Assembly: GCA_035264245.1 (NCBI GenBank)
Contig: DATFQO010000049.1
Location: 1,731-65,730 of the forward strand
DNA: 64,000 nucleotides
Direction: 5' to 3'
From: Solirubrobacterales bacterium
GTDB taxonomy: Bacteria > Actinomycetota > Thermoleophilia > Solirubrobacterales > 70-9
Shown: positions 42,110 to 64,000 of the stretch, piece after piece
How the letters are laid out: each line of letters opens with the position of its first letter
Numbering within the stretch: the stretch's first letter is position 1
The notes under the pieces: model-generated
Told to the model about the DNA's origin: nothing
Database searches by the model: none
The model's input: only the letters and a program-made list of their open reading frames with translations
Program-made: the position numbers and the translations under genes

Positions 42110-42172
42110 TTCATTCACGGTGACAAGAAAAGGTGACCCGAATCGAGCCAAGATTGGCCCGAAGCAGCCAGC

Positions 42173-42730: not shown

Positions 42731-42977
42731 TCATCTGTCTATAAAGAACCATGCACACTTTCGATCTAGATCGCTCCGAGGCCGAATCGAGCTTCCGCTG
42801 CCGGCTTGATTCGCGGCCCTGCGCCACTTGCCGCTCGCCGCGCGGCTACCTCGTCCGCCCCGGCCGCCACGCCTTCCGGCTCCACGCACCGACACAGCTG
42901 GAAACCGAGATTCCACTCCCGCTGCCTTCCACTTCAGGGTTCGCCGGGCAGCCTGAGTGCTGACAGCGTCTGGTGAC

Positions 42978-44009: not shown

Positions 44010-44037
44010 CGAGGGTTCGTCGCCCTAGGGTCGGGCA

Positions 44038-48600: not shown

Positions 48601-50561
48601 AACGAGATGGCGGACCAGGACGTCCCACCGCTCCAGCGGAGGTTGAGGCCATGAACGATGCCTGACGGGTCCCGGTAGCTGCCTACGGTCGAGCAGAAGG
48701 TGGGGCCAGCGCAGCTGATTCCGGTGAGGGCGGTACCCAGTGCACCAGTTGGCTCCGCCGGAAGCGAGGCGATCGACCACGCCGAGCCATTCCAATCGAG
48801 AGCCAGCTGATGGGTGGTGTTGCCGTCTTCGAAGATGCCAACCGCCTTGCAAAGGGCGGTGCTCGTGCAGGACACGTCTTGTAGCGATACACCGACGGCG
48901 CCGCTCACGGTGGGAGTCGACGCGATCGACCATGCGGTGCCGTTCCAGCTCATCGCCAAGGCGCGCTTTTCCCCTCCCGAATCGACATAGCGCCCAACCG
49001 CCGCACAGGAACCGGTGACGCACGAGACCCCGGACAGATGGCTGGCCAGCGAACCGCTCGGAGCGGGAGTCGTCCCGCTGGACCAGGCGGTTCCATTCCA
49101 GGTGACGCTGAGAGAACGTTCGCTTCCGGTCGAATCGAGGTAGACACCGACCGCGACGCAGTCGGAGGTGCTGCGGCAAGCCACACCCTCGAGGGCGGTC
49201 GATTTGGCACCAGCGGGAAAGGGGACATATTGCGCAGCCCAGGTAAATCCGGTCCAGCGCTGTATGAAAGCCCGTTCCACGTCCCTGCCGCGCTGGTAGG
49301 TGCCGACCCGAATGCACCACGAGAGTGAGGCGCAGGCAAGTCCCATCCTTTCGGCAGCACCGCTCTGCCCCGGAGACTGGTCCGACCAGGTCCGCTCGTA
49401 GCCGCCTGCTTCGGTCAGAGCCCACCCCGTCCCGTCGTATCTGAGGGCGAGGTTGCGATTGGCGGCGACATGGCCGTAAACAATTGACCCGCTGGCGTGA
49501 CAGAACGTTTGCGTTAAACATGCGACAGCGGTCAAATCGCTCCCGACCGCACCGACGCTCGAGATGTCCACGGACTGCAGGCTCCAGGAGGTTCCATTCC
49601 ACCACAGCGCATGCGGAAGATCGTCCTGCCCTTTGTGGAAGGTACCTACCGCGGAGCAGACCGAGGCAGAGCTGCAGGAGATTGCTTTGAGCTGGCTGCT
49701 GGTCCCGGACGGCTCCGGCGCCGACATGATCGTCCAAGTGCTGCCGAGCCACTGCACCGCGAAAGACTTCTGGATTCCGACGGAATCGAAATAGCTACCT
49801 ACTGCCTTGCAGTTGTTGGTAAGGCACGAGACTCCGGACAGGGACCCGAAGGTCGCGCCACTGGGTATCGGGATTGAGCTGGTTGACCAGGAGGTGCCGT
49901 TCCACGAGAGTGCCAGTGGTTTCGTTACCCCCGTTGAATCGGCGTAGTTCCCAACCGCAAAGCATGAGGTCGCACTGGAGCAGGAAATCGAGCTCAGATC
50001 GTTCGATTTGGAACCGCCGATGTTCGGCGAGGAGGCGACGCTCCATGAGCCTCCGTTGAAACTGATTGCGAGCGTCTGTCGAGCATTGGACGAGTTCACG
50101 TACGTCCCAACCGCCTTACAGGCCGAAGCGGAGGTACAAGCGAGGTCCGTAAGCCAGCTTGCCTTCGTACCGCTGGGCTCGGAAACAGTGGAGACCGTCC
50201 ATGCGGAGCCGTTCCATGCCATAGCCAGAGCGTGTTTCACGTTCATGCCATCGGTAGCGCTCCCAACCGCGAAGCAGGTGCTTGCCCCGGGGCAAGCAAC
50301 GCCCGAGAGAGAGCTGAGGCTGGCCCCGTCCGGCACCGGAGTGGTCTGCCTGGCCCACACCGTGCCATTCCACGCTGCGGCCTGCACCTGACTCGTCCCG
50401 ATCACATCGGAGCCTCCCACGGCAATGCAACTACTTGACGACGGGCAGGCCATATCCGCGAAATCACTCGTGGCGGATGCGGCGGCGGGTGCGAAGAGCA
50501 GCAACAGACCCAGGACCAACGCCAGTCGAGCAGTCCAGACCGTCTTTTGACCTGGGTTCAT
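45669..50561 (-). CDS. giant secreted repeat protein (1630 aa, about 27 repeats of ~48 aa)
   Basis: ATG at 50561 gives MNPGQKTVWTARLALVLGLLLLFAPAAASA. Repeat consensus L.gVSC.S...C.AVG.Y......k.LA..WNGT.WS....P.P.G. Non-repetitive acidic ~170-aa C-terminal domain. Confidence 0.85.
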   Translation of the reverse strand: MNPGQKTVWTARLALVLGLLLLFAPAAASATSDFADMACPSSSSCIAVGGSDVIGTSQVQAAAWNGTVWARQTTPVPDGASLSSLSGVACPGASTCFAVGSATDGMNVKHALAMAWNGSAWTVSTVSEPSGTKASWLTDLACTSASACKAVGTYVNSSNARQTLAISFNGGSWSVASSPNIGGSKSNDLSSISCSSATSCFAVGNYADSTGVTKPLALSWNGTSWSTSSIPIPSGATFGSLSGVSCLTNNCKAVGSYFDSVGIQKSFAVQWLGSTWTIMSAPEPSGTSSQLKAISCSSASVCSAVGTFHKGQDDLPHALWWNGTSWSLQSVDISSVGAVGSDLTAVACLTQTFCHASGSIVYGHVAANRNLALRYDGTGWALTEAGGYERTWSDQSPGQSGAAERMGLACASLSWCIRVGTYQRGRDVERAFIQRWTGFTWAAQYVPFPAGAKSTALEGVACRSTSDCVAVGVYLDSTGSERSLSVTWNGTAWSSGTTPAPSGSLASHLSGVSCVTGSCAAVGRYVDSGGEKRALAMSWNGTAWSIASTPTVSGAVGVSLQDVSCTSTALCKAVGIFEDGNTTHQLALDWNGSAWSIASLPAEPTGALGTALTGISCAGPTFCSTVGSYRDPSGIVHGLNLRWSGGTSWSAISLPSPGESRWTKLFGVDCISPSACVAVGEYADEAGHRQGLVLNGTGGAWTLGRAPEPAKTDEWSLRSIACLSGTGCMAIGDHLDNWATRRVIVANWSGATWAVDSSAEPSGASSGELRDVFCFASASCVAVGKATVSGAAGPFSATGYPGDWTIASTPKPAGASATELVDVHCSSATGCTAVGNYTSSGVKKSLAMEWNGTAWSIASVPSPAGATASELTGVACVSAISCTAVGDYTLSGVKKTLAMSWNGSAWSVVATPAPGGSTVPSELQAVSCTATNFCMATGTYTESTAKNLAMKWNGTSWSAVAIPINSESKGSALTGVACTSTTWCAAVGYDTISTERKTRGVIWNGTVWTTVGTPNGLSGYGSELRDVTCTSSTSCVAVGVSQVSGIPLTELIQAWNGTAWANSTVEEPYPFSGASPQGVSCGTYGGSTSPCLAVGNFSDEKVQKRALVQIWGAELDNRGEMSGLAGITCLQAGCMAVGRIESGLADRTEVAWQLEDSGWTAQAMPGVREGSLLDVACASLSSCTAVGSQAAGTLAERWDGIQWSVLPTPNPTGSAHSLAGLSCPSSNSCVAVGRYTSASKAVVLIEVWNGTSWSTQTAPLPAGATQAWLEDVSCPASNSCMAVGTYKDASGVKRPLGERWNGTVWSVVTVADAPASAGTEVMGVDCQSNTSCKAVGQYTIGVSSYPLSVSWNGTSWNQLAIPAPENATATYLSDVSCFGQGRCVAVGHYQAKEASGFHTLAMSWNGTGWYVEPTPNRANGISTPNSKLSAISCPAAADCAAVGTSFDSGTQTDLALSTPDISATPESGEPALELTDPAPTLTEEQVEEAQTLIAADPAFQSAIQGDNYAMTVGPWTETTATQTTNLVGVTATVAMVTPHDWEDRVWPVIGYDLEDPSYYAEGTYLEAEMKAAATEVTTLIVQLDAETDVNGNLVGGEVVMIEPVADEAGEVTYSPETLEGFEIDPNGWEY

Positions 50562-50827
50562 CTCAGCACCAGACGTCGCATCATGACCCTCCGAAATGCA
50601 CACTTGCAACTCATTGGCGAAGCCCCCCTGCGAACCAGACGCATTTGCATCGTTGGCGAGATTGATAGACAAACACATGTTCTTGTGAAGGAAGGAACAT
50701 GGTTTTAGTTACGGGATCTATACCACAAATCTAGATCCAGCTCTAACTCGGGTCCGATCACCGCCAAGCAGGGAAGGGTCGACTTGGCTCACACGCTACG
50801 GCGGCCCACGGAAACCGTGATCTATCC

Positions 50828-50856
50828 TTGACAAAACCTTTGACTAGGACTAGGTT
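50828..50856 (+). promoter_or_regulatory. near-consensus sigma-70-type promoter TTGACA-N17-TAGGTT
   Basis: TTGACA 50828-50833, 17-nt spacer, TAGGTT 50851-50856. No protein gene lies downstream on this strand, only the leader-like segment and the terminator. Confidence 0.45.
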
Positions 50857-50861
50857 GTCTT

Positions 50862-51030
50862 GGCAGCTGCTTCGGGGAGGACTGGCCGATGGCGAGCCCC
50901 CGGCGTGTCCGGACAACGGTTTCCCTGCCGCTCCGGGTTTAGGGCTGCACCCCACCCCGGCTACCTCGCCTTCCCTGTCGAGGTGAGCCCGTAAAACGAC
51001 TCCCGGTTCCCCGCCGGGGGTCGTTTTATG
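50862..51030 (+). ncRNA. candidate ~165-nt orphan transcript homologous to the TetR gene leader (sRNA or deletion scar)
   Basis: Lies between the 50828 promoter and the 50993-51027 terminator. Four colinear blocks are shared with 61780-61917 (see findings). Only a 3-codon ORF (GTG AGC CCG TAA, 50983-50994) sits where the TetR start aligns. Confidence 0.3.
50993..51027. terminator. bidirectional intrinsic terminator
   Basis: AAAACGACTCCCGG / loop TTCCCCG / CCGGGGGTCGTTTT: a 14-bp stem (one G-U) with an A-run on one side and a T-run on the other. It lies 11 nt past the stop of the 51038 gene on the minus strand and is also correctly oriented for the plus strand. Confidence 0.75.
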
Positions 51031-51037
51031 GGGGCTC

Positions 51038-51823
51038 CTATCCGCGCGCGCGGCAGCTGCGGATCAAGGTGGAGCTGAGGGTCTTGCCACCGTCGAAGCC
51101 GAAGCTCGTCCGCGCAAGGGGGAAGACGGCGCTCGAAAAGCCGGCGGGGGCAGGACAGCCGGCGAGGAGGTAGCTGCGGCTGCGGCCGCCGGCGCGGAAG
51201 CTGCGACCCAGGGTGAGCTGGATGCCGGTGACGAAGCCGGCCTGGCCGGTGACTTGCGGCAGCGAGGCGCTCAACGTGGTCGCAAAGGTGCCCTTGGCGT
51301 GGCCGATGAACAGGGGCAGCGTGTAGGAGGTGGGAACGGGGTCGGTGCCGTAGACGTGGGCAAAGATCACCGGGCGGCCGCCTTCGACGCCGTTGAAGGC
51401 GATCACCTTGCCGCGCGAGGGGAAGGGAGCCTGGCCGGGGATCGCGACGTTGGCGGAGAAGCGGCCTTCCCCCACCTTCGCGCCGCGGCAGGCCGCCAAC
51501 GCCTTCTGGGTCGTGGAGGGCTGGATCTGTTCGAGCCTGCAGGCGGGGAGGCCCTGGCGGTCGATGCGGCCCTCGCGGTTGATCGCGATCTCGATGCGAC
51601 GAAGCTGCGGCGGTTCGGAGCCGTCGGCGGTGGTGATCCTGCCGCCGATGCGGACGGTGACCGGGCGGGTGCCCTGGCGGGGCAGCTCGTGGGGAGTCAG
51701 CTGGCCGTCGAACTTCACCCGCAGACCACCCTGTTGGGCGGTCTCCGCCTCAGAGGCCGCGGCGAAGGCGGCGAGCCCCGCAAAGGCGACAAGGCCCGCG
51801 AGCTTGAGCGAGCGCAGCCTCAT
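51038..51823 (-). CDS. secreted protein C1 (single Cys-pair module, unknown family)
   Basis: ATG at 51823 forms an ATGA overlap with the B1 stop. Signal peptide MRLRSLKLAGLVAFAGLAAFAAASEA. Clear paralogue of 63225-63998. Confidence 0.75.
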   Translation of the reverse strand: MRLRSLKLAGLVAFAGLAAFAAASEAETAQQGGLRVKFDGQLTPHELPRQGTRPVTVRIGGRITTADGSEPPQLRRIEIAINREGRIDRQGLPACRLEQIQPSTTQKALAACRGAKVGEGRFSANVAIPGQAPFPSRGKVIAFNGVEGGRPVIFAHVYGTDPVPTSYTLPLFIGHAKGTFATTLSASLPQVTGQAGFVTGIQLTLGRSFRAGGRSRSYLLAGCPAPAGFSSAVFPLARTSFGFDGGKTLSSTLIRSCRARG

Positions 51824-54729
51824 CGCCGCCCGCGCTTTCGCTTGTGCTGCTTGTGCTTGGCGCATTTGACGGCGATCGGCGGCGCCGATATCGCGGTGGA
51901 GTTGTCGTGGGCGATGAAGCGGGCGCTGGCCAGTTGCGGGGCGGAGCAGAGGTTCTCGGAGTTGACGAGCAGGCCGTGCTTACCGCCGGCGAGGTTCATG
52001 GTGAACTTCGTGACGGGGGCATCAGGCAGGAGTTCGAAGGTTCCGCGCAGGCCGCCCCCCCGCGCCCTGTCGATCCGGCCCACGACTTCGACCTCGAAGC
52101 CCTGGCCGGAGAGATAGGCGACCACGTCAGGTAACAGGTTGGTCGAGGAGCGCAGGTAGACGGGGCCGCTGAGCGGTTCGGCGAGCAGTGGAGTGAGAGC
52201 TCTGGCGTAGCCGATTCGCGAGTTGGCTGGACAGGTCTTGGCCCGGAAGCGTGGCATCGTGCAGACCTGGCCGATGTGCTCCTGGGCCAAGAAGACCGAG
52301 TTCGGCAGGCTGACTGCAACTGACTTCAGGTTGGGGTCGCCGGGGCGGGGCGTGTAGGTGGCTTTCAGGGCCGGGTAGCGCCCCCGCTTCGTGCCACCCT
52401 TCAGCTTCAGGTGCAGCCTCGGCTTGAAGATGAACCCGGAGCAGTCGCTGAGCTGGAAGCGATCGCTGCTGGTAGTGGCGGGGTCGTCGGCAGGGCTGTA
52501 GAGATCCAGGCCGGCGCCGGTCAGGGTCGAGATGGTCGTGAGCGGGTCGCAGTTGGTCGGGTTGAGCGTGAAGTCGGGGCGATCGACGTCGACGCGGATA
52601 TCGCGCAGGTGGATCGGGATGCCCCTGATGATGTGGGGGATCGGATCTGAGCCGGCGGAGTCGATCGAGGCTTGCGCGCTGCGGGGGTCGATGCGGATCG
52701 CCGAGCGCACCACGACCACTCCGAGGTCGAAGGGACCGACAACGGCCGAGTCGATCGCAACCGTGGAGAGTTGGGCGCCGTGGTAGGGGCCGGCGAGGTA
52801 GAGGGCACCGGGGGCATATGCGAGGGTCCCCCCCACTCCGTAGCCGGCGAGGGTGGTGCCGATTCGGCTGGAGGCGGGGCAGCTGGGCCCCGCCAGCTCT
52901 TCGGCGCCGCCGTGGATTCCGGTGCGGGCCCGGGCGGCGGCGATCGCGGAGTCGGGGCAGACCCCGACCCCGGCCAGCTTCGCCAGGAGGCCCGGTGGGA
53001 AGGTGGCCGAGTAGGAGGTGATCTCCTGCTCGGCGTCGGTGCGGGTCATGCGCAGCTCGAAGGGCGAGTAGAAGCCGGCGGTGGGATTGAGCGAGCCTGC
53101 CTCCAGGCCCGGGTGGAAAGGCGGCAGGCCCGGGGGCGGGCACTCGCCGCCGTCGGCGCCGCGGTTGATCGGGAAGCTGGAGAAGCTCTCGAGGCGAAGG
53201 CCCGGGTCTGACCAGGGCCAGTAGTGCAACTGGGCGATGTGGGCGCCGCAGGTCGGTGGGGAGACCATCGCCGCGCGCTGGCCTTCGCGCAGGTTCAAGG
53301 TGAAGAGGTCGTAGTGGATCGGGGGCAGGTCTTCGAAGCTGACCACCAAGCGCCCGGTGGCGGGGTCGGGCTCGGCCTTGCCAAAGGACTTGAAGTAGAG
53401 ACCGCGGCGCGGCGAGGAGAGGGTGATGTAGAGCGCTATCAGGTTCTTGGCGGGGTTGGCGAAGGGGGTGGCGAGGAAGACCGAGCCTTTGAGGACTGCG
53501 GGAAGGCCTAGCAAGCCGTTGACAGAGACGGTGCCGATCTTCGAGTTGTTGGGGCAACCCGAACCCGGGAGCGAGGTGGCGCTCTCACGGACGAACTCGG
53601 CTTCGGAGCAGGTTCCGAGACCGGCGCCGAGGGACGGGTTGATGCTGAGCCCTTCGGGCAGGAGGGCGCTGACCCGTTGGATCGGCGAGCGGACCCGGCC
53701 GTTGACGTTGAGAAAGCCACCGCCGTCGTTGACGTTCAGCTCGAAGGCGATGCCGGTGGCCGCGGCGGCGCGATCGGTGAGCAGACGCAGCCTCGGGATC
53801 GCCAACACCTCGATGCAGTCGCTGACGGTGAGCGGGTCACCGCCGCTATCGCGGGAGAGGACGTTCCTGTGCTCCGCGCCGCCCTGCCAAGAGCTGACCG
53901 CCGCGCCCCATTGCAGCTGCCCGCCGCAGGTGGTGGGCAGGGTCAGGTAGGAATGGATGTGGTCGAGCGAAAGCGAGATGAAACAGGTGCCCGCGTGGAA
54001 TTCCGGGTCAGTGCTTGGATAGCGCCGCTCGATCCCGTCTTTCCAGTAGGAGGCCTCACCGTTGAAGTCGGCCGGGCTCACCTCGTTGAGGCAGTTGCCG
54101 CGTTCGACGTCGTATTTGTATTCCCACGGGGTGCCCCAGAGGGTGAGGTCGAGCGACTGGATGTTCAGCGCCTGAGTGAGGTTCTTGAGCTCGAAGTCGA
54201 GGGTGGCTTGGTCGCTGCGGTAGCGCCCGGCGAGGATCACCGGCACCCCGAAGGGGGCGAAGCCGATCGCCTCGGCGCTGCCGAAGGGTGCGGCGAGGTT
54301 GAAGAGGCCGAAGTGGCGGGTCGTGCCGCCGGCGCCGCCGGTGTGGACGGCGACGACGCCGATCTGGCTGGAGCCGGGACAGCTCTCCCCGGAGAGGCTC
54401 GCTTCGTAGGGAGAAGAGCGCCGGGTGACGAACTCACCGGCGGAGCACTCGTCGAGGGCGGCAGGGTTGGCGATCACACCGGCGGGGAGGGTAAGCCGGA
54501 GGTCGCGCAGGTCACCGTCGCTGTAATCGCCGGCCGTGTTGAGGGCAAGGTGGACCTGAAGCAGGTCAGGATGGGTGCCGGCGCCGCTCACCGGCGCGCC
54601 TTCACGCTCGATCGCGACGTCGAAGCCTTCAGGGCCTGGGAGCAGGCCAAAATCGGCGCTGGCGCTGGCCGGGGCGATAACCACCAGGCCCAGCGCGGCC
54701 AGGGCCAGCCACAGCGCCGGGTGCCTCAT
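51820..54729 (-). CDS. large secreted protein B1 (four Cys-pair modules, polybasic C-terminal tail, unknown family)
   Basis: ATG at 54729 forms an ATGA overlap with the A1 stop. Signal peptide MRHPALWLALAALGLVVIAPASASA. Paralogue of B2. Tail KCAKHKQHKRKRGRR. Confidence 0.8.
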   Translation of the reverse strand: MRHPALWLALAALGLVVIAPASASADFGLLPGPEGFDVAIEREGAPVSGAGTHPDLLQVHLALNTAGDYSDGDLRDLRLTLPAGVIANPAALDECSAGEFVTRRSSPYEASLSGESCPGSSQIGVVAVHTGGAGGTTRHFGLFNLAAPFGSAEAIGFAPFGVPVILAGRYRSDQATLDFELKNLTQALNIQSLDLTLWGTPWEYKYDVERGNCLNEVSPADFNGEASYWKDGIERRYPSTDPEFHAGTCFISLSLDHIHSYLTLPTTCGGQLQWGAAVSSWQGGAEHRNVLSRDSGGDPLTVSDCIEVLAIPRLRLLTDRAAAATGIAFELNVNDGGGFLNVNGRVRSPIQRVSALLPEGLSINPSLGAGLGTCSEAEFVRESATSLPGSGCPNNSKIGTVSVNGLLGLPAVLKGSVFLATPFANPAKNLIALYITLSSPRRGLYFKSFGKAEPDPATGRLVVSFEDLPPIHYDLFTLNLREGQRAAMVSPPTCGAHIAQLHYWPWSDPGLRLESFSSFPINRGADGGECPPPGLPPFHPGLEAGSLNPTAGFYSPFELRMTRTDAEQEITSYSATFPPGLLAKLAGVGVCPDSAIAAARARTGIHGGAEELAGPSCPASSRIGTTLAGYGVGGTLAYAPGALYLAGPYHGAQLSTVAIDSAVVGPFDLGVVVVRSAIRIDPRSAQASIDSAGSDPIPHIIRGIPIHLRDIRVDVDRPDFTLNPTNCDPLTTISTLTGAGLDLYSPADDPATTSSDRFQLSDCSGFIFKPRLHLKLKGGTKRGRYPALKATYTPRPGDPNLKSVAVSLPNSVFLAQEHIGQVCTMPRFRAKTCPANSRIGYARALTPLLAEPLSGPVYLRSSTNLLPDVVAYLSGQGFEVEVVGRIDRARGGGLRGTFELLPDAPVTKFTMNLAGGKHGLLVNSENLCSAPQLASARFIAHDNSTAISAPPIAVKCAKHKQHKRKRGRR

Positions 54730-56327
54730 CGCCCCGCCTTCGCGCGTTCGGAGCGCCCGCCCTCGTGCCGGTGGTGGGCACGGTGGTGGCGGCGCTTGCA
54801 CCCCTTGTGCTTGCGCCTCTGCTTGTGTGGCTTGCAGTTGCGAGGGAAGCTGACCGCGCGATTGCCGAGCCCCGGCAGCGAGGCGGTGGGCGGAGGTTCA
54901 TAGTCGGGCACCGGTGAGGGGCCCTGGCAGTCATCGCCGAAGCAGACCTGGGCTTCGGGTTCGGGGAAGCCACCGCCGACGCGGGCGTCATAGAGGTCGA
55001 GGGCGGCGTCGGGGTCCCGGGGCAGCAGCGGGGCACTGGTGACGAAGTAGGCATCGTCGCCCGAGGCACTGGCGCCGGCGAAGGCAGCGCCGCCGAGGCG
55101 CCCGTCAGAGATCAGAGCGAGGCAGCCGCCCGCCTGCACGCAGGTGCCCCGGCCCCCCGCCTCCCACTCATAGACGTCGGCGCTGCCGTCGGTGTCGTGG
55201 AAGAGGAGCGCGGCGGGCGAGGTGAAGAAGAAGCGGGCGCCGTCGGCGCTGGCCTGGGCACGTCCGCTCGCCGGCGGGAGGGTCGAAGGCCCAGTGGCGA
55301 GGAGCCGGGTTGAGGCACCGGCGGCAAAGCGGTGCAGGCCGTTGCTGGTGACGTAGTAGATGACGCCACCGTCGTCAGAGAGGCCGATGACGGCGAGTGC
55401 CCCGCCTGCGGAGGTGAGGTCGCTGAGGGCTTCGCTCGTCGCCTGGTAGCGGTACAGGTGTTCGCCCTGGATGAAGTAGGCCCGGGAACCGTCTCGAGAG
55501 GCAGTCTGGAAAGAGGCACCGGCGGCAACCAGGCGGCTGCCGCCGCCTTCGCGCAGGTGCAGGTTGCCGGCGAGGGTCCAGTAGACGCGCGAGCCGTCGG
55601 CGGAGACGGCGCCGGGCCCGCTGGCGAGGGCGGCGCCGGGGTCGGAGCTGATGACTTCGACGAAGCCCTCGCTCCACTCATAGAGGCTGCCCTCGGCGGA
55701 GAAGACGACGTGGTGCAGGTCGGGGCTGGCGCCTTCGAAGGCGAGCTGGAAGTCCTGAGGTTCGCTCGGCAGACTCGGAAAGGTGCTGGTGACGAGCGGC
55801 GTGAAGGTGTCGGCCTCCCGCAGGTAGAGGTTGCGGTAGCCCGGCGGAGCCCCAGGGGCCAGCGGTGGGTTCTCCACCGCGCAGGAGCCAGAGCCGTCGC
55901 GACAGCGCCAGCCGTTGTTGAGGATCGCGCTGCCGAGGTCGGCGGAGAAGAGCTCGTAGGCACCGGCGCTGTAGGTGCCGGAGAGGGCGGAGGGGGTCAC
56001 GTTCTCGCTGCTCCAGCCGGCGGCGCCGCGGGTGGCGAGGTACTGGTTGACCGGCAGTGAGCCGACCGCCTCGCCGAAGGAGGCGGGCGAGCCAAAGGCA
56101 ACTGCTCCGTCCTGCACGCCGGCCTGCAGGACGCCTGTGAAGAAGCTACCCGGCGGCCCGACCACGCCGCCGTTCTTCTCGACCGGGGAGACCAGCTCGA
56201 AGGCGCGGGAATCGAGCCCGCCGGGCGGCCCCGCCGCCGTGGCTGGGCCGGCGAGGGCGAGCAAGGCGGCGGCGCAAAGCGCCGCCGCGATTCCCGCCGC
56301 GCGGGGGTGCCGAGAGCCCGCGCTCAC
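54726..56327 (-). CDS. secreted PD40/TolB-like beta-propeller protein A1 with Cys-containing polybasic tail
   Basis: GTG at 56327 forms a GTGA overlap with the B2 stop. Signal peptide. PD40-like strands (VSADGSRVYWT, ASRDGSRAYF, ASADGARFFFTS, DVYEW). C-terminal LDLYDARVGGGFPEP..C.GDDCQG plus tail. Confidence 0.8.
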   Translation of the reverse strand: MSAGSRHPRAAGIAAALCAAALLALAGPATAAGPPGGLDSRAFELVSPVEKNGGVVGPPGSFFTGVLQAGVQDGAVAFGSPASFGEAVGSLPVNQYLATRGAAGWSSENVTPSALSGTYSAGAYELFSADLGSAILNNGWRCRDGSGSCAVENPPLAPGAPPGYRNLYLREADTFTPLVTSTFPSLPSEPQDFQLAFEGASPDLHHVVFSAEGSLYEWSEGFVEVISSDPGAALASGPGAVSADGSRVYWTLAGNLHLREGGGSRLVAAGASFQTASRDGSRAYFIQGEHLYRYQATSEALSDLTSAGGALAVIGLSDDGGVIYYVTSNGLHRFAAGASTRLLATGPSTLPPASGRAQASADGARFFFTSPAALLFHDTDGSADVYEWEAGGRGTCVQAGGCLALISDGRLGGAAFAGASASGDDAYFVTSAPLLPRDPDAALDLYDARVGGGFPEPEAQVCFGDDCQGPSPVPDYEPPPTASLPGLGNRAVSFPRNCKPHKQRRKHKGCKRRHHRAHHRHEGGRSERAKAGR

Positions 56328-59300
56328 CGCTCCGTGGCGCGCTTGCCCTTGCGGCCCTTACCGCAATCGGCCTTGAGCGCCGGCCTGCTGTCGCCGATCC
56401 TGCCGTTTTGGCCGTCGAACTCGGCGATCGCCCTGTGGGTCGCCGCACAGAGGTCGGCGCTGTTTTCCAACAGGCCCTTCTTGCCACCCTGCATCGAGAG
56501 CACGAACTTCGTGACCGGGGCGTCGGGGACGTCTTCGAACGTGGTGCGGATGCCGCCGTCCATGGAGTCGATCCGACCCACCAGGTTGACGTCGATCTGC
56601 CCGTGCAGGGCAGCCACCAGGTCCGGTAGCGAGTTATCGGAGGAGCGCAGGTAGACCGGGCCGGCAAGCGGGTAATCGAGCAGCGGGCTGGTGGCCCTCG
56701 CCCTGCCGTAGATCGACCGCTTGGGGCAGCCGCCGCCGTTGCCGCCGCCGGCGGCAAACTGGACCCGGGTACAGATGGTGCGGATGTGGCCCTGGGCCAA
56801 GAACTCCGAGTGCGGCAGGGCGACCGAGGCGCGCTCGACATTGGCACCGCCCAGGGGCATCGTCAGGGTCGCCCGCAGCGCCGGGTGCTTGCTGCGGGTC
56901 GTCCCGCCCTCGAGCGCCAGGGTTAGCTTGGGCTTGAAGGCCAGGGCGCCGCAGTCAGAGGCCTGGAAGCGATCGGAGACGTTGGCTACGTCGCCATTGC
57001 TGGCTTCGATGGCGGCCCTGACCGCTTGCGGTTCGCAGCTGGTCGGGTTGAGGGTGAAGCCGGGCCGATCGACCAGCACTCGCAGGTCGCGGTAGGAGAC
57101 CGGGATGCCGCCATAGATCTGGGGCAGCGGGTCCGAGAGGACCGTGGCCTGGGTGGTGGTGGGATTGATCTGGAGGGCCGAGCGCACCGCAACCGTGCCG
57201 AGGTCGAAGGGACCGGCCTGGGCGGGTACCGAGGCGATGACGCTGTAGGGGGCGGATTTGTAGGGGCCGGCCAGGTAGACGGCGCTGGGGGCCTTCCCCG
57301 GTTGGGGCAGGAAGAGCGGTAGGGAGCCCTCGCCGATACCGGTCTGCACGCTGCCGATGCGGCTGGCAGCCGGACAGGCCAGGGCTGCCGCCTCGGCATC
57401 GGAGCAGACGCCGACGCCGGCGAGCTTTGCCAGCTCGCCCTCGGGCAGGGTGGCGTCGATGCGGGAGATGTTGGGTTGGCCGGAGTCGCGGGTGACCCGC
57501 AGGAGGAGGGGCGAGAAGGCGCCCGCCTTGGAATCGGTGACGCCCGCCCGGAAGCCGGGCGCGAAGCCAGGTGCATTGCAGCCCTGGTCGACGCTGATGC
57601 CGGGTGCGAGCTTGACCGTCTTGCCGTTCCAGCCGGTCAGGGTTGCTTGGGCGGCGTAGGTGCCGCAGGCCTGCGGCGTCGTCAGCGGCGCCCGCGGACC
57701 GGTCTTCAGTTGCATATGCATCGATTCGAAGGGCAGCTGCGGCAGGTCTTCGAACGTGGTCGTCAGCTGGCCGGTCGTCTTGTTCACCACCAGCGAGCCG
57801 GGCAGTTTCACGTCAACTCCGCGCTCGGCCGAATGCAGGACGATCGCGAGCCGGTACATCTGGCCCGATTCGGGGTCCTGCGAGTTCTGGGTCCGCAGGT
57901 AAACCGAGCCGCCGATCGCTTCGGCGAGCAGCGGCGTGTCGACTTCAACGGAGCCGAGTCTCGAGGCTTCGGGGCACTCCGCAGGCCCCTCGCGCCCAAT
58001 CCGCAGTTGCGCGTCAGTGCAAGTGGCGAGCCCGTCCGCGGCCGCGGGGTTGAGGGAGATGCCCCGGGGCATCTCCAGGGAGACGCTTTTCACGTCGGCA
58101 GTGGCGATTCCGTCAGGCCCACTTCCCTGGGGCAAGGTCAGGTCGACTGCAAGACCACTCGCGCTGTGGGCGGAGCCGTCGGTCGGAGCCAGACTTACGT
58201 GGGGTTCGAAGGGAACACTGTCGCATCCAGTGGTCGCCGGCGTGGTGGCGGATCTCCTATGGAGGATATCCGGGTGCAGGTAAGTATCCATTTCCATCTC
58301 CCACCGCAGCGGTTCGCCGGAGCATGAGGTCGGAAGCCGTAACAACGGAGACTTCGAAGCACTGGAAAGTAGGCACCTTTCGCCGCTGGCGCCAGAAAGA
58401 CCCCGAATGCATTGAGGCCGAAGGTCGTCATGGAAGCTGTCGGCGGGGGTGCCCCAGAAAACGGTCTGGATGCTCGTCAGCTGGTCAGCAGTGGCTGCCC
58501 GGACCGTATAGAGATCCACTCCGTAGTCAGAGGGGCGCAATTTGGCCGGAATGATGACGGGCACTCCCTGGTAGTAGAGCCCAAACTCTGCCGGGACCCC
58601 CGCGGAAGGCACCAAGTTGTACATCGGCGTCAGATCCTTACCATTGAGCAGAGCGTAGCCCACCTGACTGTCATCGGGGCAACTCGGTACCTGATTGTTT
58701 TTGGCGTCAGGGTCGTGATTGGAAAACGACAATTGCCCAGCCGTACACCGCGAGCCGGTGGCCGTGGGATCTCCGACGAATCCAACCGGTAGGTGCGTCG
58801 ACAGGTTGCGGAAGCTCTCAGGCGTTGCAATGAAGGTGAAAGCTGGTTCGAGATCCAGCGGCGTTGCGGCATGGCCATAGAACGAGGCCCTAGCGGACAC
58901 TTCGCGTGGATGGGACCCCGCCTGTGCGGTGGGCAGTTTAGGATTGTCGGCGATCGCCATTTCGAAGGCCTTGAACTGGAAGGGGCCAACAGGACCGGTA
59001 TCGAAGCTGAGCGGATAGGTGGCCGGGTTGGATGCTCCGCCGCCGGTAACCTGGACCTCAGCGTTGAGCGTGCTTTCGGCTCCGGCTTCGACAAACGTAA
59101 GGAGCTTGAAGGTCATCAGGTGATGGGGGGCCATGACGCTGGCGTCAGCGGTGCATTCGACTTCCTGAGCGGATGACGTGCAGACGGTGTTTTCCGGCAA
59201 TGCTTCGGAATCGGCGAACGATGAGGCGAGTCCCTCATCAAACGTGTATCGAAGGGTGAGGGTGCCGCTCATCGCTTCATCGCCTTCATTGTGGATGGCG

Positions 59301-59482
59301 ACTATCATTGCCAACCACTTTCCCGGAGTGACCTGGTCCGGAGAAGATCCGGTGATGCTCAGCACCGGCGCAGCGCTGGCAGCGGAAGCGGCGGCGCCAA
59401 AGGCGCCGATCGCAGCCAGTGCTGCCAGTGCGAACGACACGAGGCGACGCGTGACGCGGTTTTGACGGAAGGGTCGGTTCAT
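56324..59482 (-). CDS. large secreted protein B2 (CARDB-like N-domain plus four Cys-pair modules, polybasic tail)
   Basis: ATG at 59482 is preceded by AAGGAGA and gives the signal peptide MNRPFRQNRVTRRLVSFALAALAAIGAFGAAASAASA. An upstream in-frame ATG at 59545 would make an ATGA overlap with the A2 stop. Tail DCGKGRKGKRATER. Confidence 0.8.
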   Translation of the reverse strand: MNRPFRQNRVTRRLVSFALAALAAIGAFGAAASAASAAPVLSITGSSPDQVTPGKWLAMIVAIHNEGDEAMSGTLTLRYTFDEGLASSFADSEALPENTVCTSSAQEVECTADASVMAPHHLMTFKLLTFVEAGAESTLNAEVQVTGGGASNPATYPLSFDTGPVGPFQFKAFEMAIADNPKLPTAQAGSHPREVSARASFYGHAATPLDLEPAFTFIATPESFRNLSTHLPVGFVGDPTATGSRCTAGQLSFSNHDPDAKNNQVPSCPDDSQVGYALLNGKDLTPMYNLVPSAGVPAEFGLYYQGVPVIIPAKLRPSDYGVDLYTVRAATADQLTSIQTVFWGTPADSFHDDLRPQCIRGLSGASGERCLLSSASKSPLLRLPTSCSGEPLRWEMEMDTYLHPDILHRRSATTPATTGCDSVPFEPHVSLAPTDGSAHSASGLAVDLTLPQGSGPDGIATADVKSVSLEMPRGISLNPAAADGLATCTDAQLRIGREGPAECPEASRLGSVEVDTPLLAEAIGGSVYLRTQNSQDPESGQMYRLAIVLHSAERGVDVKLPGSLVVNKTTGQLTTTFEDLPQLPFESMHMQLKTGPRAPLTTPQACGTYAAQATLTGWNGKTVKLAPGISVDQGCNAPGFAPGFRAGVTDSKAGAFSPLLLRVTRDSGQPNISRIDATLPEGELAKLAGVGVCSDAEAAALACPAASRIGSVQTGIGEGSLPLFLPQPGKAPSAVYLAGPYKSAPYSVIASVPAQAGPFDLGTVAVRSALQINPTTTQATVLSDPLPQIYGGIPVSYRDLRVLVDRPGFTLNPTSCEPQAVRAAIEASNGDVANVSDRFQASDCGALAFKPKLTLALEGGTTRSKHPALRATLTMPLGGANVERASVALPHSEFLAQGHIRTICTRVQFAAGGGNGGGCPKRSIYGRARATSPLLDYPLAGPVYLRSSDNSLPDLVAALHGQIDVNLVGRIDSMDGGIRTTFEDVPDAPVTKFVLSMQGGKKGLLENSADLCAATHRAIAEFDGQNGRIGDSRPALKADCGKGRKGKRATER

Positions 59483-59541
59483 GGAAGGGTCTCCTTGGTC
59501 CAAAGTCGAGAAGCCGGTAGTCAGCGCCTGCTCACGACCCC

Positions 59542-61605
59542 TCATCGAGAGGTCCCGAGGCGGGCGGAGGACTCGCGCTTGCGGCCCGCGCGGTGTTTCT
59601 TGCGCTTCACGCAACGCACCTTTCCGTGCCGCTTGAGATGACGTTGGTTTTTGCCGCAGGGCCTCCGCGGCCTGAGGTTGCCGCGAGCGACGGCCCCCGA
59701 AGCGACGGAAGGGCCGAGGGGCGAAGCAGCGGACCCACCCTGACAGGCTTCGCCGGAGCAGGGGCCGACGGGCGTGCCTCTGGGTTCGTCGAATCCACCG
59801 CCGACGCGGGAGTCGTAGAGGTCGATGAAATCATCGGAGTCGGAGGGGACGAGCCGGGAGCGGGTAACGAAGAAGACATCGTCGCCGCTCTTGCTGGCGT
59901 CGGCGAATTCGCTCGGTTCGCTGCTTACGCCCGAACTGACGAGGCTCAACTGGCCGGTGGGGCCATCGTAGGAGTAGACGTCGGGGACACCGTTGGTGTC
60001 CTGCGGAAGCAAGCTGTTCGCGGTGGTAAAGAAAACACGGCCGTCATCGGTGAGGTAGCGCGAGCGAAAACCGGGGGGTTCGACGCCTCCCGAAGCGGTC
60101 AAGGTGGGAACATAGGCGGCTTCCTCCCGAAATTGGAAAAGTTCACCAGGACAGGTGGTGCAGGTCACCGTTCCGGCGTCGTGGTTATAAAGAAAAAGCT
60201 GCCCTCCTGCAACATATGCAAGCCACTTGCCGTCCGGTGACACTCGAGAGTATCCGGGATTTGCTGAGGCGAGTCTCAATACGCGAGACTTGTAGGCTTC
60301 CTCGGCAACACTTCGAATAAAGGTACTCGTACCCGCCTCCAACACTCTGAGGTCGCCGTTATTCTCCTTGGTGTAGACACGGGTTCCGTCATCGCTCATT
60401 CCGACTAGTGCCCCGGTAGTGCCATCGAAGCTCGTAATCGCGCTGCCGCTGTTGGTCAGCAAAGTGAGGTTCGGTTCGTGCTCGGGGTCTGGGCCGAAGG
60501 TCCAGCGATAGAGGTCTGGGCCACCTGCCGTGTCGCCGGGAAGCAAGGGCGACTCGGTGGTGAAGAAGAGGGTTTCGCCATCCGGGGTCATGCCTTCAAA
60601 ATGGACGTTCTGCGCTTCTTCGGCGAAGGCCGGGTTTTCCGACTCCGATACCAGGACGGTATAGCTGTCGTCCACCCGCAGGAAGACCTGCTTGGGGCCG
60701 AACGCCGGGGCCGAAAAGGGGAGTCGGGAGCCGTCTACCGAGATCCCTCCCCTGTAGCTCTCTGGTTCAAGGGTCGAGCCACCTGGCGGCACCGTGCCGT
60801 CGGGGAGAATGCCGGCGAGATGGATGGTTCCTTCGTCCCAGCTATAGGCGTTTTTACTGGCGTTCGGGTATTCGCCTGGGATCGCGGGGACCAGCTGTCC
60901 CGTTGCCGCGAAGCTGAGATGATGGAGATCGGGGGAGTTGCCCCATCCCTCTTCGGCGAGAAAATTGCCAAAGAAGTACTTGATCGGGTCGCCTTCGCCG
61001 GTCTGAGAACCGGTGACGGACTGCAGTTTGCGATCAGCGGTGTCCTCGATATAGAGGTTCATGCGATCAGGGGTATCGTCGACCGCGTCAGGAAGGTCAT
61101 AGGCGCGCGTTAGGACATGGGACATGTCCTCTGAGAAGACCTCGGTGTAGGTGCCAACCCTGACGAGGTTGGCGTCCGGGTTCCCCCTGGGGGTGAGGGC
61201 GTGAGTCGTCCAGCCGGCCGCGCCACGCTCGGAGAAATAGGTAATGCGCCCTTGTGCACCCGATCCTTCGCTATCGGCGAAGCCGATCCGCGATTCGAAG
61301 GCGGCGGCGTTACCGTCGGCGCCAGCGGTTATTCCGCCATTCTCGGCCACGATGTCACCGCCCCCCTTGTCGGCGGGGGTCACGCGCTCGAAGGCGCGGC
61401 AGCCGCCGACCTGCGTCGCGCGCTGGGCAATCCGGATCGCTTCGTTGGCGCACGCCCCGTCAGCGCCGGCAGGCGGGGCGCCGGCCCCAAGCAGAGATGC
61501 GAAGGCGACGGCGCTGGCAAAAGCCAACAGCGCCCCCAACAGGATCATGCTCCGGTGCGTGCCGGATCGGCCAGCCGTGGCTGCGGAAACGTCCCTTGCC
61601 TTCAA
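59542..61605 (-). CDS. secreted PD40/TolB-like beta-propeller protein A2 with Cys-containing polybasic tail
   Basis: TTG at 61605 is preceded by AAGGAG plus a 6-nt spacer. Signal peptide MILLGALLAFASAVAFASLLGA region. VSPDGKWLAYV and DVYSYDG strands. IDLYDSRVGGGFDEP..CSGEACQG plus tail. Confidence 0.8.
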   Translation of the reverse strand: MKARDVSAATAGRSGTHRSMILLGALLAFASAVAFASLLGAGAPPAGADGACANEAIRIAQRATQVGGCRAFERVTPADKGGGDIVAENGGITAGADGNAAAFESRIGFADSEGSGAQGRITYFSERGAAGWTTHALTPRGNPDANLVRVGTYTEVFSEDMSHVLTRAYDLPDAVDDTPDRMNLYIEDTADRKLQSVTGSQTGEGDPIKYFFGNFLAEEGWGNSPDLHHLSFAATGQLVPAIPGEYPNASKNAYSWDEGTIHLAGILPDGTVPPGGSTLEPESYRGGISVDGSRLPFSAPAFGPKQVFLRVDDSYTVLVSESENPAFAEEAQNVHFEGMTPDGETLFFTTESPLLPGDTAGGPDLYRWTFGPDPEHEPNLTLLTNSGSAITSFDGTTGALVGMSDDGTRVYTKENNGDLRVLEAGTSTFIRSVAEEAYKSRVLRLASANPGYSRVSPDGKWLAYVAGGQLFLYNHDAGTVTCTTCPGELFQFREEAAYVPTLTASGGVEPPGFRSRYLTDDGRVFFTTANSLLPQDTNGVPDVYSYDGPTGQLSLVSSGVSSEPSEFADASKSGDDVFFVTRSRLVPSDSDDFIDLYDSRVGGGFDEPRGTPVGPCSGEACQGGSAASPLGPSVASGAVARGNLRPRRPCGKNQRHLKRHGKVRCVKRKKHRAGRKRESSARLGTSR

Positions 61606-61726
61606 CTCTCTCTCCTTGTGTCTCGAGGGCCCCCTGGTGGCCCTTTTCCCTTAGGGCGGCGGCTACCCGAGCCGCCTCCCTTCTCCTGCCATCGCCCGAA
61701 CACCGGCCGTATGGAAAAGCAGCGGT

Positions 61727-61756
61727 ACCCTAGCGAATGATTTGTGGTGATGTCAA
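61727..61756 (-). promoter_or_regulatory. candidate promoter of the A2-B2-A1-B1-C1 operon (TTGACA-N18-TAGGGT)
   Basis: The minus strand reads TTGACA (61756-61751), an 18-nt spacer, then TAGGGT (61732-61727). This implies a ~115-nt 5' UTR containing two short hairpins (61626-61644, 61658-61676). Confidence 0.4.
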
Positions 61757-61907: not shown

Positions 61908-63218
61908 TTGGCCGGTTATGTTCCGCCCGAAATGGTCACCACGCCCTGGGGAGACGCGAGCACTCTGCGGGATCGCCGCCTCTCCCCGGGACGGGGCACG
62001 CCGCGCGAGGAGGTATGTCAGAACCAGCGCGAACGGCTCTTCGCAGCGATGGTGGCGGTGACCGCGGAGAAGGGGTACGCCGAGACCTCGGTCGCCGACC
62101 TCGTGGAGCTCTCGGGAGTCTCGAGCCGCAGCTTCTACCAGCACTTCGCGGACAAGGAGGAGTGCTTCCTGGCCGCGATGGACGAGATCCTCGGCGGTGT
62201 GCAGGGGCGGACGACGGTCGCGCTGCAGGGGGACGGCGATCAGCGCAAGCGGGTGGAGGACACCGGGAAGAAGCTGATCGAAACGCTGGCGCTGCAGCCC
62301 GCGGCGGCAAGGCTGTGGCTGGTGGAGTCCTTCTGCGCGGGCGAGCGGGCACAGGCGCGCATGAACCAGGCGCTCGACGGCTTCGCCCCGCTGCTGCAGG
62401 CGGTCCTCGACCAGATCCCCGAGCGGCGGGGGATGCCGCCGCAGCTGACCGAGGCCCTGCTCGGCGGCGTCTCCGGAGTGATCTACGGCCGCCTTGCGAA
62501 CGGGAAGGTCGACTCGGTGCGACGCCTGGCGCCGGCCCTCTCAGAGTGGGCGTTGAGCATCCCGCCACCGCCCCATGCGCTGCGCTCACCGGATCGGCGC
62601 AAGCGGATTCCCGGCACGAACCCGCCGCCCTTCGCCGCGCACGTGCCGGGGGAGCGGATCCTGCGCGGCTTCACCTCGGTGGTCGCGGAAAAGGGGTACG
62701 CGGCGGCGACGATCGCCGACACGGCGGCGGCCGCGTCGATCTCCCAGAACACCTTCTACGCGCACTTCCGTGACAAGGAGGACGCCCTGCATGCCGCCCT
62801 CGACTCCAGCGGCGCCCAGCTCGTCGCGGCGACCCTGCCGGCGGTGCGCCGAGCGCCGCCGTGGCCGGCGGCGCTGCGGGTGGCGCTGGAGGCGGCGTTC
62901 GGCTTCCTTGCCGCCGAGCCGGAGTTCGCACACCTGCGCGCCGTCGAGGTCTACGCGATCGGGCCGGAGGCGGTCGAGCTGCGCAACAGGCAGGGCGGGG
63001 AGATCGTGCAGGTGCTGCGATCGATGGCGGCCGATGCTCCTACCGAGATCGCCCCGATCCCGCTCGAAGCGACTCTGGCGGCGGTCAACTCACTCCTCTA
63101 CCAGTGGGTGCGCCACGAGGGCGCGCGCAGGCTGCCCGAGCTGGTGCCGCTGGCGACCTATCTGGTGTTGGCCCCCCTGATCGGGGCCGAGGAGGCCCAC
63201 GAGACCGCCTGCGGGTGA
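61908..63218 (+). CDS. tandem-duplicated TetR family regulator (two HTH plus ligand domains in one chain)
   Basis: TTG start preceded by GGAGG 5 nt upstream. Two TetR_N signatures: RLFAAMVAVTAEKGYAETSVADLVELSGVSSRSFYQHFADKEECF and ILRGFTSVVAEKGYAAATIADTAAAASISQNTFYAHFRDKEDAL. Confidence 0.85.
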   Translation: MAGYVPPEMVTTPWGDASTLRDRRLSPGRGTPREEVCQNQRERLFAAMVAVTAEKGYAETSVADLVELSGVSSRSFYQHFADKEECFLAAMDEILGGVQGRTTVALQGDGDQRKRVEDTGKKLIETLALQPAAARLWLVESFCAGERAQARMNQALDGFAPLLQAVLDQIPERRGMPPQLTEALLGGVSGVIYGRLANGKVDSVRRLAPALSEWALSIPPPPHALRSPDRRKRIPGTNPPPFAAHVPGERILRGFTSVVAEKGYAAATIADTAAAASISQNTFYAHFRDKEDALHAALDSSGAQLVAATLPAVRRAPPWPAALRVALEAAFGFLAAEPEFAHLRAVEVYAIGPEAVELRNRQGGEIVQVLRSMAADAPTEIAPIPLEATLAAVNSLLYQWVRHEGARRLPELVPLATYLVLAPLIGAEEAHETACG

Positions 63219-63224
63219 GCGACC

Positions 63225-63998
63225 TCAGCCTCCTACCCGGCAGTTGCGAATCAGGGTCGAAGACAGCGTTCCCACGGTCCTGAAGGAGAAGCTGGCTCGC
63301 GCCAGCGCAAAGACCGCCCCTGAAAACCCCTCCGGCGCCGGGCAGCCGGCGGAGACGTAGCCCCGCGTCTTCCCCCCCACCTCGAAGCGCCGGTTGAGCG
63401 TCAGCGAGATCCCGGTGACGTAGGCGACGTCGGCGGTGACCGCGGGCAAGGCGGCTCTGAGCACCGTTCCCCAGGTCCCCTTGCCGGCGCGCATGCTCAA
63501 GATCAGGGTGTAGGAGAGGGGGACGGGGAGGGTGCCGTAGACGTGGGCCAAGATCACCGGCCTGCCTTTGTCGATGCCGTTGAAAGCGACGATCTTGCCC
63601 TCGGATGGAAACGGCGATTGTTCGGGGATGAGGACATTGGCGGCGAAGGTTCCTTCGCCGACCTTGGCGGGCCCACAGGCCGCCTGGGCACCGGCCGTGG
63701 TCGAGGGCTGGATCTGGGCGTAGGTGCAGCTCGGAAGGCCTTTGGGATCGATGTGCCCGGCGCGGTTGAGCGCGATCTCGATTCCCTGCAGCTGCGGTGG
63801 CGGAGCGCCGTCGAGGGTGGCGATCCGGCCGCCGACCGTGACCGCGATCGGCGCTGCTCCCAGGCGCGGGAGCGCGGCCGGGCTGATCTTGCCGCTGAAG
63901 GAGACGCGGAGGTTGGCCTTCTGAGCGGTCTCCGCCCGGGCCAGGGGAACAGCTGCTGACAAGAGCACCGCCGCGACGAGCAGAACGGGCCTCCTCAT
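63225..63998 (-). CDS. secreted protein C2 (paralogue of C1)
   Basis: 257 aa with a signal peptide, colinear with C1 (LRV.F.G...P..LPR.G..P..V..GGRI.T.DG..PPQL..IEIA.NR.G.ID..GLP.C...QIQPSTT). The start ATG sits in an ATGA at 63995-63998. Confidence 0.75.
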   Translation of the reverse strand: MRRPVLLVAAVLLSAAVPLARAETAQKANLRVSFSGKISPAALPRLGAAPIAVTVGGRIATLDGAPPPQLQGIEIALNRAGHIDPKGLPSCTYAQIQPSTTAGAQAACGPAKVGEGTFAANVLIPEQSPFPSEGKIVAFNGIDKGRPVILAHVYGTLPVPLSYTLILSMRAGKGTWGTVLRAALPAVTADVAYVTGISLTLNRRFEVGGKTRGYVSAGCPAPEGFSGAVFALARASFSFRTVGTLSSTLIRNCRVGG

Positions 63999-64000
63999 TT

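Follow-up and report, generated by a model that had tools for sequence, protein, structure and literature searches.

Sec-exported chains of immunoglobulin (Ig)-like domains and extracellular propellers are known from several kinds of surface protein. PrgB, antigen I/II, ClfA/B, and other MSCRAMMs are all-beta Ig-like chains anchored through LPXTG motifs and sortase, integrin alpha combines an FG-GAP propeller with Ig-like legs, and the surface-layer (S-layer) protein SLP of Nitrosopumilus maritimus (8c8o) is a long acidic beta-sandwich chain outside the cell. The mycobacterial surface adhesin HBHA, which has no signal peptide, binds polyanions through a Lys-rich C-terminal tract. Here, we analyzed a 64,000-nucleotide (nt) stretch from a Solirubrobacterales bacterium (contig DATFQO010000049.1; the window, which throughout means the stretch in its full length), in which a minus-strand operon at 51038-61605 encodes three kinds of secreted protein, termed A, B, and C, in the gene order A2-B2-A1-B1-C1. 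The operon probably specifies an unstudied cell-surface assembly, and as a conservative choice we regard multi-domain surface proteins held non-covalently as its nearest broad kind. More specifically, we tentatively favor a reading in which A, B, and C form an undescribed, envelope-associated complex of Sec-exported proteins that is held at the surface by charge. Judged from their sequences, the components appear to be new families, and no described counterpart was found to the three-part operon or to the polybasic C-terminal tag that A and B share. The five genes are as follows, with product lengths in amino acids (aa).

59542-61605, minus strand: A2, 687 aa, secreted protein of predicted PD40-type beta-propeller fold with a polybasic C-terminal tail
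56324-59482, minus strand: B2, 1052 aa, secreted protein with four predicted Ig-like modules and an extra N-terminal domain
54726-56327, minus strand: A1, 533 aa, secreted protein of predicted PD40-type beta-propeller fold with a His/Arg/Lys-rich C-terminal tail
51820-54729, minus strand: B1, 969 aa, secreted, predicted all-beta protein of four homologous modules
51038-51823, minus strand: C1, 261 aa, secreted, predicted beta-sandwich protein, strongly basic

These coordinates and the order on the minus strand, proposed in a first-pass annotation of the same DNA, were confirmed by the list of open reading frames and their translations. Direct reading likewise recovered the three 4-nt start/stop overlaps that had been reported, namely GTGA at 56324-56327 (B2 stop, A1 start), ATGA at 54726-54729 (A1 stop, B1 start), and ATGA at 51820-51823 (B1 stop, C1 start). 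An in-frame ATGA that had been noted at 59542-59545 is present, but the better-supported start of B2 is the ATG at 59482, which stands just past an AAGGAGA ribosome-binding site and leaves a gap of 59 nt between A2 and B2. The start of A2 is a TTG located 5 nt past the Shine-Dalgarno sequence AAGGAGAGAGAG, while public gene calls use an ATG 19 codons further downstream, giving a product of 668 aa. The coupling is no local accident, because a locus in another genome (L001), with a B1 that is 67% identical, repeats the same five-gene order with 4-nt overlaps at four of four junctions.

The B proteins are the largest products of the operon. B1 and B2 were 36% identical over 967 columns (E = 9e-152), such that the full-length alignment claimed in the first-pass annotation holds except for some 170 additional N-terminal residues of B2, which lie outside it. 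Internal repeats were recovered by hhalign of alignment segments at probabilities of 91-98% (modules 1 and 2, 96%; modules 2 and 3, 96%; modules 2 and 4, 98%), and we predict B to be built of four homologous all-beta modules, which in B1 occupy residues 26-330, 331-545, 546-770, and 771-955. Conservation is highest in module 3 and lowest in module 1. The AlphaFold2 model of B1 was wholly beta (predicted local distance difference test [pLDDT] 79.6, predicted template-modeling score [pTM] 0.68). B1 contains 18 Cys and has the tail KCAKHKQHKRKRGRR; B2 contains 20 Cys and also has a basic tail.

Members of this family are numerous and without names. The B1 search returned more than 1,044 proteins, every one annotated as hypothetical, and among 1.84 billion cluster representatives (50% identity) the B profile matched 9,128 at E <= 1e-3 and 3,424 at E <= 1e-30. 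The largest homologues reach 7,161 aa and contain up to 18 matched module stretches; the module can therefore be concatenated. Neither B1 nor B2 matched a Pfam or NCBIfam model, none of 25 B-family members matched Pfam (E <= 0.01), and no relatives were found among PDB sequences (single-sequence and profile searches), PADLOC, or PHROGs.

Foldseek searches of the PDB with the B1 model placed the Ig-like domains of PrgB first (8beg, E = 5e-12) and the Nitrosopumilus S-layer protein second (E = 8e-9, template-modeling [TM] score 0.12), followed by integrin alpha legs, SafDAA, the CfaE/CfaB pilus subunits, AgI/II (4tsh), ClfB (3au0), and macroglobulin domains. All TM-scores were at or below 0.18, and matches in a viral structure library (DUF11, tail-fiber, and FN3 proteins) were likewise generic. 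As TM-scores were low, the folds of B and C are read no further than as chains of Ig-like sandwiches. The Ig-like beta-sandwich chain that LPXTG proteins possess is thus found in the B1 model as well, and is not a family-specific feature. Unlike the MSCRAMM-type adhesins, which rely on LPXTG/sortase anchoring, the operon encodes three separate subunits, including a propeller partner, and B is disulfide-rich, without a sequence-family match, and bears a polybasic tag in place of a covalent anchor. No operon product has a C-terminal LPXTG, the sole LP.[TSA]G match being internal, at residue 387 of B1.

The second-ranked of these matches, together with the combination of acidic proteins and a basic anchoring element and the many paralogues per genome, reminiscent of variable S-layer gene families, bears on an S-layer-like lattice, in which B with A and C would constitute the main self-assembling envelope layer and the different clusters would be lattice variants. 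However, the TM-score of this match is just 0.12, B lacks the SLH, CWB2, or other recognized anchoring domains of domain-anchored S-layer proteins, and a three-subunit operon under TetR control (described below) is unlike the constitutive, highly expressed genes of S-layers. We consider such a lattice unlikely. Foldseek also listed Salmonella alpha-2-macroglobulin, complement C3/C4/C5, and TEP1, as would be expected of an alpha-2-macroglobulin-like protease trap or complement-like thioester protein, but with match probabilities of 0.14-0.44 and TM-scores below 0.1, and no MG/A2M Pfam domains were present. Kinship with these proteins was rejected, as none of the six A, B, and C proteins of the window has a CxEQ motif, the absence of which effectively excludes this explanation.

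A phage or defense origin was similarly rejected, in that PADLOC and PHROGs searches were empty, nothing specific came from the viral structure library, and a single relative was recovered from 2.9 million viral contigs. That relative, the only B homologue on a contig classed as viral (L083; IMGVR_UViG_3300043481_000001, 42570-52316), is 39% identical, lies near the contig end, and is probably host DNA beside a prophage or part of a misclassified contig.

C1 is strongly basic (net charge +18), with four invariant Cys, and was modeled as a beta-sandwich (pLDDT 87, pTM 0.81). No Foldseek match fell under E = 1e-3; the weak matches were to the integrin calf and to Gram-positive pilin domains, with TM-scores of 0.37 or less. 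Neither C1 nor C2, a second C-family protein encoded near the end of the window, matched Pfam or NCBIfam, none of 30 C-family members matched Pfam (E <= 0.01), and searches of PDB sequences (single sequence and profile), PADLOC, and PHROGs were also negative, even though the 2,158 homologues of C1, all unnamed, represent a sizeable family. The placement of B and C outside characterized families in the first-pass annotation was thus upheld across Pfam, NCBIfam, PDB sequences, PADLOC, PHROGs, and Foldseek, the latter returning generic Ig-like matches for B and none that were significant for C. We rejected the idea that C represents a free-standing copy of a single B module, since hhalign comparisons between the C profile and the individual B modules gave probabilities below 1%; a strong C-profile match in the B alignment arose because that alignment included B-C fusion proteins.

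The giant B homologues that concatenate the module, the single C gene at the end of each operon, and the Foldseek matches to chaperone-usher subunits (SafDAA, CfaE/CfaB) and Gram-positive pilins would all suit a polymerizing fiber or pilus, with B joined end to end through strand exchange, disulfides, or cross-links, C as its terminator or base, and A at the tip. Yet these matches are generic to Ig-like folds, there is no sign of an unpaired strand or cysteine, and the cluster is without sortase, usher, chaperone, secretion ATPase, or LPXTG motif, making a fiber of this kind improbable. Chaperone-usher pili, moreover, need a periplasmic chaperone and an outer-membrane usher, whereas the host here is a monoderm actinobacterium, and no chaperone-usher family was matched by the five operon products or C2 (Pfam, NCBIfam).

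The A proteins are assigned, from sequence, to a putative PD40-repeat propeller family. A2 matched PD40 (PF07676, E = 3.8e-5), its sole database match, as did 16 of 30 A relatives (Pfam), and A1, for which no Pfam or NCBIfam match was obtained, contains at least five PD40-like repeats of the form S.DG...F.S that are also seen in A2. The family profile spans A1 and A2 end to end, in agreement with the full-length alignment originally described, but a direct BLASTP comparison reaches only the C-terminal two thirds (29% identity, E = 7e-26). A2 is acidic, with a net charge of -21, and the A proteins carry a Cys-rich C-terminal region as well as the polybasic tail. A total of 1,780 proteins were homologous to A1, and profile and single-sequence searches retrieved no PDB sequence relatives of A.

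PD40 repeats of this kind, as found in A2 and in the 16 A relatives, are common to TolB/PD40 proteins. Unlike TolB, A has no TolB N-terminal domain (no Pfam or NCBIfam match), and the host is monoderm; tolQRA and pal are not among the neighboring genes, which encode secreted proteins and a glycosyltransferase. None of the known families compared here has its defining features reproduced in the operon, which by fold class stands nearest to Ig-like-chain adhesins and S-layers and by layout nearest to integrin alpha. The legs of integrin alpha are matched by B and C, with a propeller in A and with A-B fusions arranged propeller first and Ig-like domains second. The differences are that the propeller is of PD40 rather than FG-GAP type (no FG-GAP match in A; Pfam), that there is no transmembrane segment, and that the subunits are usually separate polypeptides. 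Given the low TM-scores, the likeness is one of layout and not of homology. Pfam and NCBIfam gave no enzyme family or catalytic motif for the window proteins and 30 A relatives, in keeping with the earlier remark that no catalytic motif was visible.

All five operon products, as had been observed before, and additionally C2 begin with a signal peptide in which a basic N-terminus is followed by a hydrophobic core and an A-x-A-like site; these are predicted to be of Sec type, and neither a lipobox nor a Tat motif was present in any of the six. Cysteines are conserved in all three families: 17 are invariant in B and 4 in C, and the A proteins have a median of 10 each, which fits with oxidative folding outside the cytoplasm.

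The first-pass annotation correctly stated that there was no known sorting signal; nonetheless, a conserved polybasic tag stands at the C-terminus of both A and B, which are unrelated in sequence. We counted C-terminal charges in 120 A and 120 B proteins and found that the last 20 residues carried a net charge of +4 or more in 99% and 91%, respectively. The final residue was Arg in 95 of 120 for each family, Gly was enriched at positions -4 and -3 in both, and the consensus was (K/R/H)n-G-G-R-R-COOH, a tract that is kept in composition and not in sequence. C proteins are without the tract, but very basic over their whole length, with median net charges being -13.5 for A, -4.5 for B, and +16.5 for C. 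Some of the NHL propellers inside clusters also bear it. Across 360 A, B, and C family members no C-terminal hydrophobic segment or transmembrane helix was detected. The tails accordingly have the basic cluster of PEP-CTERM, GlyGly-CTERM, and PGF-CTERM signals but not the transmembrane helix, and no window protein matched an NCBIfam model of a C-terminal sorting tag. Unlike the tract of HBHA, a protein of unrelated fold, the A and B tails are K/R/H-rich, end in G-G-R-R, and are common to two or three unrelated families in one operon. The tag is a candidate for a retention signal of a new type.

A review of surface display in monoderms lists the wall-binding domains SLH, CWB1/2, LysM, SH3b/GW, SPOR, PGB, and WxL (PMC5817068), and the passages of it that we drew upon describe no bare polybasic tract. 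None of the domains listed in those passages was identified by Pfam in six window proteins or in 25 B, 30 C, and 30 A relatives.

The gene order proved to be conserved well beyond the window. A scan of species-representative genomes yielded 569 confirmed stretches, of which 78 loci were kept for gene-order counts and were searched with the window proteins for A, B, and C neighbors; all of them come from metagenome-assembled genomes (MAGs) of Solirubrobacterales, Thermoleophilia, or Actinomycetota, with several loci per genome. The window itself likewise derives from a Solirubrobacterales MAG (100% match to P0001). The next gene upstream of B1-type genes was A in 69 of 86 cases, so that the expected colocation of B homologues with A-type genes in other genomes was found. 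The next gene downstream was C in 61 of the 86, adjacent in 33 of these and approximately 1 kb away in 19. B2-type genes were never directly followed by C (0 of 30), the next gene being A or B. The full A2-B2-A1-B1-C1 order occurred in roughly 20 loci. Because the five-gene order itself recurs, the A-B duplication is ancient: the two A-B pairs noted at first are real, but what looked like a module duplication is no recent event, the two orthologous module types having been paired since long ago and kept so.

Fusions join the same partners. In five B-C fusions (P0010, P0031, P0056, P0081, P0091) the C domain is attached to the B C-terminus, the joint being exactly the signal-peptide cleavage site of C. 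Two A-B fusions (P0314, P0348) have the propeller first and the Ig-like modules after it, and an NHL-B fusion was also present (P0252). The C genes located about 1 kb away encode long C proteins of about 600 aa, in which an N-terminal NHL-repeat propeller precedes the C domain (for example L020 12721-14559, L039 7423-9309, and in L036, L042, and L045); in other loci NHL propellers are separate genes between B and C, some of them with polybasic tails. The polybasic tract persists in B-C and A-B fusions as an internal linker, and we accordingly rejected the notion that the C domain replaces the polybasic tail. The B-C and A-B fusions offer independent support for a physical or functional link.

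This conservation also bears on whether there is a complex at all. A, B, and C might instead be secreted proteins that are co-regulated but act independently, within an expanded family specific to this lineage, in accordance with the loci in which A or C is missing beside B and with contact between the three being inferred and not observed. Retention of order and 4-nt overlaps across genomes at 40-70% identity, and the existence of several independent kinds of fusion, speak against independent action, which we regard as having only a slight chance of being correct.

Transcribed in the opposite direction from A2 is a regulator gene, beyond which the layout continues with further family members.

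61908-63218, plus strand: double-TetR regulator, 436 aa, two tandem TetR units in one chain, two TetR_N matches
63225-63998, minus strand: C2, 257 aa, C family, 60% identical to C1, tail-to-tail with the TetR gene
63995-64000, minus strand: 3' end of B3, a B-family gene of 942 aa that extends beyond the window, with a 4-nt overlap between its stop and the start of C2

The divergent regulator of the first-pass annotation was substantiated by the two TetR_N matches and by its position, as double-TetR orthologues are divergent from the A gene in six other loci (L002/L026, L004, L017, L062, L071, L077). B3 and the end of a fourth B gene further upstream were seen on the public contig L081 (1-4206). 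On the minus strand the layout therefore reads B4, then B3-C2, then the TetR gene on the opposite strand, then A2-B2-A1-B1-C1. C2 closes a B3-C2 module, with the end of B4 upstream of it, and thus at least four B paralogues are arranged around one double-TetR gene. The window contained no further A, B, or C copies besides the six genes (the five of the operon and C2), and none were in its first 44 kb.

Ordinary TetR genes are common near the clusters, and a TetR gene, often several, stands beside nearly every one. This, along with interchangeable heads (PD40, NHL, fn3 additions) and strong paralogue expansion, would agree with inducible extracellular capture machinery, loosely comparable to substrate-specific loci of other phyla, in which PD40/NHL propellers would bind particular soluble or polymeric substrates and each cluster would be switched on through TetR by a ligand of its own. 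However, no gene for a transporter, hydrolase, or binding protein shows a consistent link to the clusters, and no enzyme family was detected. In the 78 loci, the recurrent neighbors were large NHL-repeat proteins, small collagen-like proteins, and housekeeping genes; no transporter, enzyme, sortase, or ATPase recurred beside the clusters, extending to these loci the absence of transporter, sortase, and secretion ATPase that had been remarked upon for the operon. Capture machinery thus seems to us about as unlikely as the S-layer-like lattice.

Under the favored reading of a charge-held surface complex, the products would form a multi-subunit assembly seated on the cell envelope of the monoderm host. 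A would be the head, with a PD40 (sometimes NHL) beta-propeller binding ligands, and B the stalk or scaffold, consisting of four tandem Ig-like modules stabilized by disulfides. C, as a small, very basic beta-sandwich, might join the C-terminal end of B1-type stalks. Translational coupling would fix subunit proportions, at two cognate A-B pairs and one C per transcript. Retention would be electrostatic, the polybasic tags of A and B and the basic C proteins binding wall, membrane, or external polyanions, and the role of the whole would presumably be one of binding, possibly adhesive. With each paralogous cluster under its own TetR-type repressor, the cells could present different versions according to the small-molecule cue.

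Several points weigh against this reading. The proposed complex draws on synteny and fusions, from which contact among A, B, and C is inferred; Foldseek TM-scores for the models are low (B <= 0.18, C <= 0.37); and no wall-binding domain of the type catalogued in the review passages is present in the window proteins. Since the tract is internal in the fusions, it need not be a free C-terminal signal. TetR control is, furthermore, more usual for catabolic or efflux genes than for structural surface layers. A stronger version, in which a head-stalk-base complex or lattice is typical of Solirubrobacterales/Thermoleophilia and (K/R/H)n-G-G-R-R is a new retention or sorting tag that needs no transmembrane helix, is possible, but we hold it more doubtful than the charge-held complex itself.

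Solirubrobacterales, Actinomycetota that are widespread in soil, are known almost exclusively through MAGs. Our literature search for envelope or surface proteins of Solirubrobacterales, Thermoleophilia, and Conexibacter found nothing relevant. B and C comprise thousands of members without a Pfam or NCBIfam model, solved structure, or name, in several clusters per genome, and defining them would annotate a sizeable block of the 'hypothetical' proteins in soil metagenomes. For the question of how such bacteria adhere to particles, to polymers, or to one another, the two families would offer a concrete starting point, and the polybasic tag common to A and B can be put directly to the test as a candidate for a new means of retaining proteins on a monoderm surface.

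The transcriptional signals on either side of the operon are listed below.

61727-61756, minus strand: promoter candidate read from sequence, -35 TTGACA (61756-61751), 18-nt spacer, -10 TAGGGT (61732-61727)
61606-61726, minus strand: 5' leader, about 120 nt, G-rich, ending in the Shine-Dalgarno sequence AAGGAGAGAGAG
50993-51027, minus strand: hairpin with T-run, intrinsic-terminator-like, 11 nt past the C1 stop

The elements of the promoter proposed in the first-pass annotation are present, and TTGACA with a T/A-rich hexamer 17-18 nt on is kept at the same place in the TetR/A intergenic regions of six orthologous loci (L002, L004, L017, L062, L071, L077). A consensus promoter scan did not call it, however, because the -10 box matches only three of six bases. 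The terminator, with arms AAAACGACCCCCGG...CCGGGAGTCGTTTT, stood up to both direct reading and a terminator scan, which placed the hairpin core at 51002-51023.

The A2 leader holds a 12-nt inverted repeat at 61653-61681. A riboswitch or known RNA in this leader was rejected, as an Rfam search at E <= 1 returned no match. The 302-nt intergenic region was also searched for a palindromic TetR operator; it contained a single 12-nt inverted repeat, inside the leader, and the operator candidate was not upheld, no operator conserved across loci being established. The A-gene leaders of orthologous loci (L004, L017, L062, L071, L077) are 100-170 nt long and G-rich, and by eye have in common a GC hairpin and then AGGGA(A/C), both ahead of a ribosome-binding site, GGAGAG.

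Directly past the terminator, two overlapping minus-strand genes (44038-50678), neither with a Pfam match, encode a secreted 1,669-aa protein with about 25 Cys-containing 'WNGT.W' repeats and a secreted 547-aa protein. Relatives of the 'WNGT.W' repeat protein occur near B clusters in L008 and L033. Further along, an envelope-related minus-strand neighborhood (33919-42151) includes a GT4 glycosyltransferase (33919-36402), a DUF5122 propeller (37212-38741), a 615-aa protein without a Pfam match (38722-40569), and an RTX-repeat protein (41066-42151). G+C content is 0.57-0.65 at 44000-51000 and 58000-61000, which covers A2, the 5' part of B2, and the downstream repeat-protein genes, and 0.68-0.72 in the remaining operon and the regulator.

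Each collagen-like neighbor is a protein of about 280 aa with a membrane anchor at its N-terminus; a G-X-Y tract is present, and the motif G[ST]WAVTA is conserved at the C-terminus. One is encoded directly upstream of an A gene (L059, 5382-6347), and others are in L028, L032, L048, L055, L057, L060, L061, L066, L076, L080, and L019. Finally, in L002 a group II intron reverse transcriptase/maturase (RVT_1 and GIIM; 18939-20216) lies between two A-B modules, and a PIN/MazE toxin-antitoxin pair is located near this intron.

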